This document shows positions 31,923 to 32,670 of a DNA stretch of 64,000 bases, one piece after another (position 1 is the stretch's first letter; each line of letters opens with the position of its first letter). Made by a program: the position numbers and the translations under genes. Under the pieces are notes generated by a model. That model worked only from the letters and a program-made list of their open reading frames with translations. It did no database searches and had not been told where the DNA came from. Source of the DNA: Escherichia coli (GTDB taxonomy: Bacteria; Pseudomonadota; Gammaproteobacteria; Enterobacterales; Enterobacteriaceae); NCBI RefSeq assembly GCF_009931435.1, contig NZ_CP043414.1; one strand, 5' to 3'.

Positions 31923-32219
31923 ATGCAGGAGCATGAGCGCACCATTATCACTCTGGGCATTCTGGGCGGAATCGCTGCCGCAAGTCGGGTGCTGGCTGGC
32001 GCAGAGCCGATTACGTTGCGGTTGTTTGTGGGCCGAACCCTGCTGGGGAGCGCGCTGGGTGTTTCTGCCGCTGCCCTGCTGGTTCGCTACCCGAACCTTG
32101 ACCCACTGGCCATTGCCGGCGCAGGCACCGCAATGGGCGTTGCCGGTTACCAGATTGTTGAAATCTTCCTGCGTCATATGCGCCGGAAGCTGGGCGAGAA
32201 AGAGAACAAAGAGGAGTAA
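31923..32219 (+). CDS. Holin-like three-TM membrane protein (98 aa)
   Basis: Three hydrophobic helices and charged C-terminus RHMRRKLGEKENKEE; followed by a peptidoglycan hydrolase gene. Confidence 0.55.
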   Translation: MQEHERTIITLGILGGIAAASRVLAGAEPITLRLFVGRTLLGSALGVSAAALLVRYPNLDPLAIAGAGTAMGVAGYQIVEIFLRHMRRKLGEKENKEE

Positions 32220-32225
32220 CAGCAA

Positions 32226-32333
32226 TGCTGTCCCGCAGGGAACAAAAAGCTGCCGCCATTGCCTGGAAAATTATCCGGGCACTGTGGTACTGGCTGCGCA
32301 AACCTCAGCAACCTCATAAGGAGCAAAAATGAA
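32226..32333 (+). CDS. Small basic peptide (35 aa) between holin-like and peptidase genes
   Basis: Found by reading; stop overlaps the peptidase start (ATGA). Confidence 0.3.
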
Positions 32334-32670
32334 ACTCTCCGATAAGCAACAACAATTTACCGTCATGATCGGAAAACTCATCCAGTTTGCCCATCAGCGC
32401 GGTTATGGCCTGACGTTCGGTGAGGCGTACCGCACGCCAGAACAGGCAAAACTCAACGCACAAAAGGGATCCGGCATTGCCAACAGCCTGCACTGCCAGC
32501 GGCTGGCCGTGGATTTTAATCTGTTTATTAACGGTGAATATCAGACCCGCACAGAGGCCTACCGCGAGCTGGGCGAGTACTGGGAATCCCTTGGTGGCGC
32601 ATGGGGCGGTCGTTTTAAAAACCGCCCGGATGGCAATCATTTCAGCCTTGAGCACGACGGCGTGCGCTGA
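32329..32670 (+). CDS. Peptidase M15-family (VanY-like) cell-wall hydrolase, probable endolysin
   Basis: Zn-ligand pattern H...D (SLHCQRLAVDF) and GNHFSLEH typical of M15 peptidases. Confidence 0.7.
   Translation: MKLSDKQQQFTVMIGKLIQFAHQRGYGLTFGEAYRTPEQAKLNAQKGSGIANSLHCQRLAVDFNLFINGEYQTRTEAYRELGEYWESLGGAWGGRFKNRPDGNHFSLEHDGVR

Follow-up and report, generated by a model that had tools for sequence, protein, structure and literature searches.

Introduction

A holin followed by a soluble endolysin constitutes the textbook pathway of phage lysis. The last step, removal of the outer membrane, is assigned to Rz/Rz1 spanins such as those of lambda, which are known in embedded and overlapped types, and 91 of 677 phages (~13% of tailed phages of Gram-negative hosts) were found to carry no spanins (Kongari et al. 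2018; PMC6139136). Just one spanin-independent route has been validated, namely that of the disruptin gp28 of coliphage phiKT, a helical protein of 56 amino acids (aa) with a charge of +7 and no signal sequence, which is encoded between the endolysin and the holin, complements lambda Rz/Rz1 defects, fractionates with membranes, and as a synthetic peptide kills like LL-37 (10.1101/515445). According to a January 2026 paper, it ‘remains an open question’ whether disruptins are generally encoded by phages that lack spanins, and their diversity defeats systematic prediction (PMC12819732). Here we examine positions 31923-32670 of a 64,000-nucleotide stretch of an Escherichia coli chromosome (NCBI RefSeq assembly GCF_009931435.1, contig NZ_CP043414.1; the whole stretch is hereafter called the window), where a holin gene and an endolysin gene are separated by a 35-codon open reading frame (ORF) and spanin genes are missing. 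We consider the best overall explanation to be a lysis cassette in which the encoded peptide replaces the spanin step, a proposal to which we give about even weight.

The layout into which this cassette fits has been described. In Haemophilus phage HP1 the gene order is orf24 (tube), hol, lys, orf25 (Rz-like spanin), orf26 and orf27 (tape measure), and the order tube-holin-endolysin-Rz/Rz1-chaperone-tape measure is annotated in SI7 (Irrigatiovirus), ESSI-2 (Seongnamvirus) and YenM324 (vB_YenM_324; Tresduoquattuorvirus), which are the nearest isolated phages. A holin plus an M15 endolysin between the tube and chaperone genes is an ordinary arrangement, already known for HP1-like Peduoviridae. 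An earlier interpretation of the window made from its letters alone (hereafter the sequence-only reading) was correct in placing the cassette between these two genes, but this location is the standard HP1-type layout rather than an anomaly. Likewise, the contrast that it drew with P2, whose lysis genes are located between the head and tail-completion genes, is true of P2 but relies on the wrong reference, HP1-like phages being the apt one. The interest of the locus therefore resides in the 35-aa ORF combined with the missing spanins, and not in the cassette itself.

Results and discussion

Spanin genes are missing where the ORF is present

Three joint changes set the window lineage apart from HP1-type cassettes (HP1 hol-lys-orf25, SI7 gp11-13, ESSI-2, YenM324 gp22-25): the Rz/Rz1 pair is gone, a 64-bp hairpin spacer stands in its place, and ~110 bp carrying the 35-aa ORF lies between holin and endolysin, such that the endolysin start is located 110 nucleotides (nt) downstream of the holin. 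In the relatives, the holin and endolysin genes overlap directly, and the Rz/Rz1 pair occupies ~480 bp with Rz1 abutting the chaperone gene. Otherwise the cassettes correspond, as evident by the shared slot between the tube and tail assembly chaperone (TAC) genes, the surrounding sheath, tube, TAC and tape-measure genes, the PF04550 holin (60% identity to that of YenM324) and the M15 endolysin (75-80% identity to those of SI7, ESSI-2 and YenM324). HP1 itself differs in that its endolysin is a different protein of 186 aa.

Relatives were collected by scanning with an M15 alignment, which yielded 80 loci from IMG/VR and 68 loci from a set with one genome per species. The order tube-holin-M15-Rz/Rz1-TAC is the rule in both scans (~66 IMG/VR loci and ~45 Enterobacterales species genomes), and is represented in Siccibacter, Enterobacter, Hafnia, Kluyvera, Rahnella, Citrobacter, Erwinia, Yersinia, Serratia, Photorhabdus, Xenorhabdus, Morganella, Providencia and other genera. 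The same M15 endolysin is also carried by unrelated phage backbones, where holin-like membrane proteins precede it and an embedded i-spanin/o-spanin pair follows it. A second IMG/VR scan, conducted with the lineage-specific tube protein, returned 23 loci that all carry the ORF and in no case a spanin; three of these ORFs stop two codons early (33 aa) and one stops after residue 27. Additional examples of the ORF, likewise without a spanin, are found in Escherichia albertii (locus L086), in the E. coli genomes and in a metagenome contig (L179).

None of ~170 related loci combines spanins with the peptide ORF. The sole locus with neither is a degraded holin-M15 remnant without flanking tail genes in Proteus hauseri (L125; NZ_LXEV01000034, ~2616-3339), and this gene pair appears to be a stranded chromosomal remnant of a lysis cassette. 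When 110 unique M15 sequences were placed on a neighbour-joining tree, the 15 peptide-associated ones fell into one clade, six nodes deep, with a spanin-bearing sister. Because the peptide clade is nested among spanin-bearing sequences, and because HP1 has a spanin in the same slot, we conclude that spanins are ancestral and that their loss, together with the gain of the peptide, happened once. The locus thus offers a clean comparison between dozens of spanin-bearing relatives without the peptide and one nested clade with it, in what is otherwise the same cassette.

The absence of spanin genes nearby, which had been noted in the sequence-only reading, holds on closer inspection. The i- and o-spanins of three relatives gave no tblastn match anywhere in the 64-kb window, and a lipobox scan of the prophage revealed no credible or conserved o-spanin candidate. 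The late genes at 42327-46507, which were checked for hidden spanins, encode only baseplate proteins, tail-fibre/tail proteins or proteins of no family. One candidate o-spanin, an ORF at 32591-32722 (+2 frame, ‘MAIISALSTTAC...’), was rejected on the grounds that its lipobox is weak (T at -3), its mature part spans just 18 aa and is encoded by the hairpin, only a few residues of it exist in the diverged cassette L016, and there is no i-spanin partner.

The ORF is very probably a gene under selection

The ORF (32225..32332, + strand) encodes the peptide MLSRREQKAAAIAWKIIRALWYWLRKPQQPHKEQK, whose net charge is +7. RefSeq annotation names the holin and an ‘M15 family metallopeptidase’ and leaves the ORF unannotated, and the peptide has no Pfam or PHROG match. 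A strong Shine-Dalgarno (SD) sequence, GAGGAG (32211..32216, + strand), falls within the final codons of the holin gene, at a distance of 8 nt from the start codon of the ORF, and is conserved in all lineage members inspected. The SD sequence of the endolysin, AAGGAG (32318..32323, + strand), in turn resides inside the last codons of the peptide ORF, whose TGA overlaps the endolysin ATG (ATGA, 32329-32332). The same overlap is present in L016, and in L179 the ORF overlaps the endolysin start by 14 nt.

Among nine alleles, the ratio of nonsynonymous to synonymous polymorphism (pN/pS) is 0.23 in the frame of the ORF, compared to 1.07 and 0.79 in the other frames. The pS value of 0.20-0.21 equals that of the tube, holin and chaperone genes, and therefore this DNA is not simply frozen; pN/pS in these neighbours is 0.02-0.08. 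In addition, the allele of locus L013 carries a 3-nt deletion that keeps the frame, and premature stops in the lineage occur only after the helix described below. The exact peptide is encoded on at least 1000 contigs, and 65 distinct variants form three clusters at 90% identity, all of them ‘hypothetical protein’ entries of E. coli.

Two diverged forms have been found, both in the same slot of spanin-less cassettes. A 41-aa version in L016 (WP_305855007.1) has a GTG start that overlaps the holin stop, and a 39-aa version (P0032, on contig L179) emerged when 1.84 billion proteins were searched exhaustively with a profile (E = 2e-7). The core W-[KQ]-[IL]-[IL]-R-x-L-..-L-[RC]-[KN] is common to the 35-, 39- and 41-aa forms, whose charge ranges from +7 to +9 (+8 to +9 in the two diverged forms). 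From the frame-specific selection and the homologues in the same slot, we are confident that the ORF is a real gene under selection. Two other leads were discarded. The top match of the profile search (P0031, 1059 aa) is spurious, being a repetitive protein with 14 copies of ‘VCWQLLRACWQW’, and the idea that the peptide is a duplicate of the cationic holin tail was dropped because local alignments to five holins are no better than those of shuffled sequences.

The peptide is predicted to form a cationic amphipathic helix

An AlphaFold2 model built from an eight-sequence alignment consists of one helix at residues 4-25 and a disordered tail rich in Pro, Gln and Lys, with a mean pLDDT of 75 that rises to 89 at residues 11-20. 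The basic face of the helix is narrow (K8, K15, R18, Y/H/R22, R25, K26), and the hydrophobic face is broad and carries three Trp residues. Residue 22, which is the most variable position and toggles between Tyr, His and Arg, lies on the basic face. For the core 18-mer, mean hydrophobicity is 0.78, the hydrophobic moment (muH) is 0.44, the charge z is +4 and the HeliQuest-type discrimination factor D is ~1.7; a D value above 1.34 is said, after Gautier et al. 2008, to indicate a lipid-binding helix. The muH of the best window reaches 0.49-0.64 depending on the variant, values comparable to those of melittin and magainin, lower than that of LL-37 and no lower than that of phiKT gp28. The helix is thus at least as cationic and amphipathic as gp28.

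The peptide carries no transmembrane domain (TMD), signal-like segment or lipobox, and its maximum hydropathy is 1.06. It is a Trp/Arg-rich cationic peptide that is predicted to be helical, and the claim that this helix is amphipathic is a moderate one. The disruptin class, which was founded by phiKT gp28, is a functional rather than a sequence family and comprises small (<80 aa) peptides with a charge of at least +4 and a predicted amphipathic alpha-helix. The predicted properties of the peptide agree with this description, as do its lack of a signal sequence, TMD or lipobox and its presence in the lysis cassette of a spanin-less phage.

The holin and the endolysin

The 98-aa product of the first cassette gene (31923..32219, + strand) matches the holin families PF04550 (Phage_holin_3_2; 5.5e-28, 97.7 bits versus a cut-off of 25, with 85 of 86 profile positions covered) and phrog_175 (1e-32). 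Hydropathy peaks at residues ~7-27, 31-54 and 60-83 and the charged C-terminal tail RHMRRKLGEKENKEE bear out the three membrane segments and charged C-terminus that had been proposed, as judged by simple hydropathy. The C-terminal tail is not conserved among the three peptide-bearing sub-lineages. The holin is also 29% identical to the phiKT holin gp29, which itself passes the PF04550 cut-off (37.9 bits). As a separate matter, PF04550 holins may be a useful anchor for finding further disruptin-type genes.

The third gene (32329..32670, + strand) encodes a 113-aa protein of the M15 (LAS-type zinc) peptidases, as evident by a profile search (PF13539, Peptidase_M15_4, 3e-11, 44.1 bits versus a cut-off of 25) and by matches to the endolysin PHROGs 1768, 465 and 2649; the M15 assignment of the sequence-only reading is thereby substantiated. 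The protein is a soluble, single catalytic domain with no extra domain and no signal, signal-arrest-release (SAR) or TMD segment (maximum hydropathy 0.73). Residues H55, D62, D101, H104 and H109 are invariant in the M15 alignment, and the motifs H55-x6-D62 and D101-G-N-H104 align with SRHLHGLAVD and DGVHF of the L-alanyl-D-glutamate endopeptidase of PDB entry 8q2g. By comparison with T5-type enzymes, these are presumably the zinc ligands and catalytic residues. T5-type L-alanyl-D-glutamate endopeptidases (M15C) are likewise small single-domain LAS zinc peptidases with H-x6-D and D-G-x-H motifs, but the window enzyme bears only marginal similarity to 8q2g (E = 0.07 in a sequence search of PDB). 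Despite this marginal match, the family, the motifs and the orthology to the annotated endolysins of Salmonella phage SI7, Cronobacter phage ESSI-2 and Yersinia phage YenM324 settle the kind of M15 protein that is present. Given the holin and spanin context in relatives, the bare catalytic domain and the invariant motifs, the peptidase is, on sequence grounds, an endolysin and not a virion enzyme.

These family matches, the identity to annotated endolysins and the synteny agree with the proposal in the sequence-only reading of a lysis-type cassette formed by a holin, a small peptide and an M15 peptidase, whose three ORFs of 98, 35 and 113 aa are indeed all located on the + strand at 31923-32670. 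We regard it as almost certain that this region is the late-expressed lysis cassette of an HP1/P2-like E. coli prophage.

A candidate substitute for spanins

In the pathway that we propose, the three-TMD PF04550 holin would build up in the inner membrane, trigger and make holes, through which the soluble M15 peptidase, lacking a signal sequence, would exit and cut peptidoglycan cross-links or stem peptides. The next event, in which Rz/Rz1 fuse the outer with the inner membrane, would not be possible, given that the gene pair is deleted in this lineage. Instead, the predicted +7 amphipathic Trp/Arg-rich helix would be produced from the 35-aa ORF that sits, translationally coupled, between the holin and endolysin genes, and this helix may accumulate late and bind membranes. 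It could reach the periplasmic face of the outer membrane either alone or via the holin holes and weaken this membrane, such that the cell would burst once the peptidoglycan is gone, as with the gp28 disruptin. The proposed role is the same last step that Rz/Rz1 spanins perform. Unlike spanins, however, the peptide has no TMD, lipobox or periplasm-spanning coiled coil, is encoded by one small gene rather than two, and would act by membrane destabilisation and not by fusion.

The lysis genes of phiKT (gp27 endolysin, gp28 disruptin, gp29 holin) are similar in that they lack spanins, include a PF04550 holin and place a small +7 helical peptide beside this holin, and in that both gp28 and the window peptide are without signal sequence or lipobox. 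The two systems differ in that phiKT, a podophage, is virulent and uses an endolysin of the T4-lysozyme type, whereas the window carries a temperate myovirus-type prophage with an M15 peptidase, and in that the role of gp28 is validated by experiment whereas that of the window peptide is proposed from comparisons such as these. By this analogy, the window would have reached the three-part logic of phiKT independently and in a different virus family. The chance that the 35-aa peptide substitutes for spanins as an outer-membrane disruptor seems to us even or slightly below. More tentatively still, the helix might be a second, independently evolved phage outer-membrane disruptor that displaced Rz/Rz1 in one Escherichia lineage of temperate HP1-like phages. 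In phiKT itself, gp28 (NC_019520, 4103-4666 region) is still recorded in RefSeq as a ‘hypothetical OmpW family transmembrane protein’ and its family phrog_35982 as ‘unknown function’.

Several points count against the peptide being a spanin substitute. The amphipathicity is moderate, with best-window muH values that exceed those of only 85-99% of shuffles, depending on the variant. The mutual exclusivity of peptide and spanins rests on one evolutionary event, that is, on one clade rather than on repeated independent swaps. The peptide evolves faster than its neighbours, which could mean weak constraint; for example, L179 shows 54% identity to the window for the peptide compared to 92% for the tube, 80% for the holin, 95% for the M15 peptidase and 90% for the chaperone. 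The ORF might matter chiefly as a translational-coupling leader for the endolysin. Moreover, gp28, a member of phrog_35982, and the window peptide, which matches no PHROG, yield no blastp alignment with each other and are linked by analogy only. Finally, a tblastn search with the peptide gave no match among 50,697 phage records, and the phage collection contains no plaque-forming isolate with this cassette, so that the lineage is presumed to be competent for lysis. Regarding this last point, strong purifying selection acts on the lineage's structural genes (pN/pS 0.02-0.08 at a pS of ~0.2), and these genes therefore belong to working phages that must leave their cells.

Should the peptide indeed replace spanins, it would establish a second disruptin family, and no smaller dedicated lysis protein would be known from a tailed phage. 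The case would constitute a natural gene swap in which a single 22-residue amphipathic helix takes over from a membrane-fusion machine of two proteins. A rule for searches would follow, by which disruptins are sought as small cationic ORFs gained where spanins were lost, and a short membrane-active peptide of possible antimicrobial interest would be added. In the literature on disruptins and spanin-less phages, we found no description of a cassette variant in which spanins give way to a hairpin and a small cationic helix. The host is E. coli, in which complementation of lambda RzamRz1am is routine, and the prediction is therefore testable in days.

Alternative explanations for the peptide and the peptidase

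The most serious competing explanation is that the peptide acts at the holin or inner membrane as an antiholin, a timer or a depolarising trigger, and that the outer membrane is left to turgor, shear or nothing dedicated. The position of the ORF directly after the holin, in a translationally coupled cassette, is in keeping with such a role, and a cationic amphipathic helix arriving from the cytoplasm meets the inner membrane first. Precedents can be cited as well, in that small accessory lysis factors that act on the holin level, such as the 65-aa Lcc6 of Shewanella phage LambdaSo, are known (10.1101/2024.01.23.576932), and the authors of the phiKT study predict that a membrane-active peptide alters the proton motive force and hence holin triggering (10.1101/515445). 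However, a regulator of the holin has no reason to track the loss of spanins, and no spanin-bearing relative has the peptide. It is also difficult to reconcile with a peptide that lacks a TMD, unlike Lcc6 or dual-start antiholins, and with the lack of conservation of the holin tail, which is a possible binding partner, among the three sub-lineages. Furthermore, it would leave a widespread phage lineage under purifying selection without an outer-membrane step. For these reasons we judge action at the holin level to be unlikely as the full explanation, and note that it and disruptin activity are not mutually exclusive.

Slightly more doubtful is the possibility that the ORF is a translated leader, the product of which has no function, that carries the SD sequence of the endolysin and couples its translation. 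The ATGA overlap and the position of AAGGAG in the last ORF codons are what such a leader would exhibit, the C-terminal tail tolerates early stops (the 33- and 27-aa forms), and the peptide diverges faster than its neighbours. Coupling is moreover a conserved feature of the cassette, since the holin overlaps the endolysin start in spanin-bearing relatives. Yet this ancestral overlap already provided coupling, a simple leader has no need of 27-41 codons, and the pN/pS of 0.23 in frame versus ~1 out of frame indicates selection on the amino-acid sequence as such. Forms that are just 34-54% identical also share charge, the Trp/Leu/Ile core and helix length. It is very improbable that the ORF is merely a frame that happens to be open in non-coding spacer DNA. 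The lack of a family match and the failure of the NCBI pipeline to annotate it in RefSeq genomes would be expected of such a frame, but the frame-specific purifying selection, the in-frame deletion, the conserved SD and start, and three diverged homologues in one slot, the 41-aa one being annotated (WP_305855007.1), would not. The least probable alternative, to which we assign almost no weight, concerns the cassette as a whole, and holds that the peptidase is a virion-associated cell-wall hydrolase used for infection, with the gene cluster being structural and not lytic. This possibility, which was also raised in the sequence-only reading, draws on the location of the gene among tail genes and on the occurrence of M15-type domains in some phage tail proteins, as illustrated by the phrog_1768 profile, which is 1577 positions long and is matched internally. 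The 113-aa peptidase, however, is a stand-alone enzyme without a tail-attachment domain. A holin always precedes it, a spanin pair follows in every relative outside the lineage, even away from tail genes, and hol-lys-Rz of HP1 fills the same slot.

A hairpin in the place of Rz/Rz1

The spacer that stands where relatives encode Rz/Rz1 contains a hairpin (32677..32708, + strand) with a 13-bp stem and a pyrimidine/T-rich tail. Its predicted free energy is -20.7 kcal/mol (z = -4.1), none of 200 shuffled sequences is as stable, and a terminator scan ranks it as the best terminator-like site within 29000-35500. In L016 the stem persists through two compensatory pair changes; L179 has it too, and spanin-bearing relatives lack it. 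This element could be an internal terminator or attenuator, an mRNA stabiliser that separates lysis from the downstream tail genes, or a scar of spanin removal.

The prophage and its other genes

The cassette resides on an E. coli chromosome, and this stretch is 100% identical to NZ_CP074819 (strain 7_33_46A). It is present in 41 of 5426 complete E. coli genomes and is chromosomal every time. The carrier is an intact-looking P2/HP1-like (Peduoviridae) prophage of ~35 kb, with an integrase adjoining pheA at its left end and raiA/bamD beyond its right end, and with P2-type portal, terminase, scaffold, capsid, ogr and gpA-like replication genes. The neighbours of the cassette were identified by Pfam and PHROG matches as sheath (DUF2586/phrog_907), tube, tail assembly chaperone and tape measure. 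The two flanking genes are those that the sequence-only reading had named, namely the tail tube gene that forms the left boundary (31464..31919, + strand; PF10772, Phage_HP1_Orf24, 1e-50; phrog_1182, tail protein) and the chaperone gene that forms the right boundary (32735..33028, + strand; PF10963, Phage_TAC_10, 1.6e-26).

Following the chaperone gene, RefSeq records a 48-aa DUF6890 ORF (33070-33216; phrog_7050) as a gene of its own, which lies in the -1 frame with respect to the chaperone. This frame is open from at least 33001, the chaperone ends in a run of seven A nucleotides (GTA AAA AAA TAA, 33019-33025), and the SI7 homologue gp15 aligns from 33037. The DUF6890 ORF looks like the usual programmed -1 frameshift extension of the chaperone (gpE/E'-like) and not an independent gene.

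The right end of the prophage (45869-49346) looks like a variable hotspot for defence and addiction genes. Its cargo includes a 212-aa ORF of no family (45869-46507), a YafO-family toxin (46507-46887), a 489-aa AAA ATPase/nuclease (47330-48799) that PADLOC reports as the candidate defence gene HEC-04 (6e-204), and a truncated fragment of a type II DNA methyltransferase (48960-49346). The copy of this prophage that occupies the pheA/raiA site of another E. coli genome has Hok/Gef, Com and an intact methyltransferase in place of these genes.

The early region of the prophage encodes a protein with an SPFH (stomatin/prohibitin-like) domain (15747-16571), which matched no defence-system model. Two further genes (20515-21800), which directly follow that of the gpA-like replication endonuclease, encode an actin-like segregation ATPase of the ParM type and a ‘plasmid partitioning/stability’ protein. 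Such genes are unusual for a P2-like phage that integrates site-specifically, and hint at an episomal (plasmid-prophage) stage or ancestry. Two consecutive tail-fibre sets (37458-42330), one comprising a 566-aa fibre and a 183-aa assembly protein and the other a 679-aa fibre and a 200-aa DUF4376 protein, may form a dual host-range module. A pseudogene fragment derived from a shikimate transporter interrupts the second fibre in strain FHI_NMBU_10.

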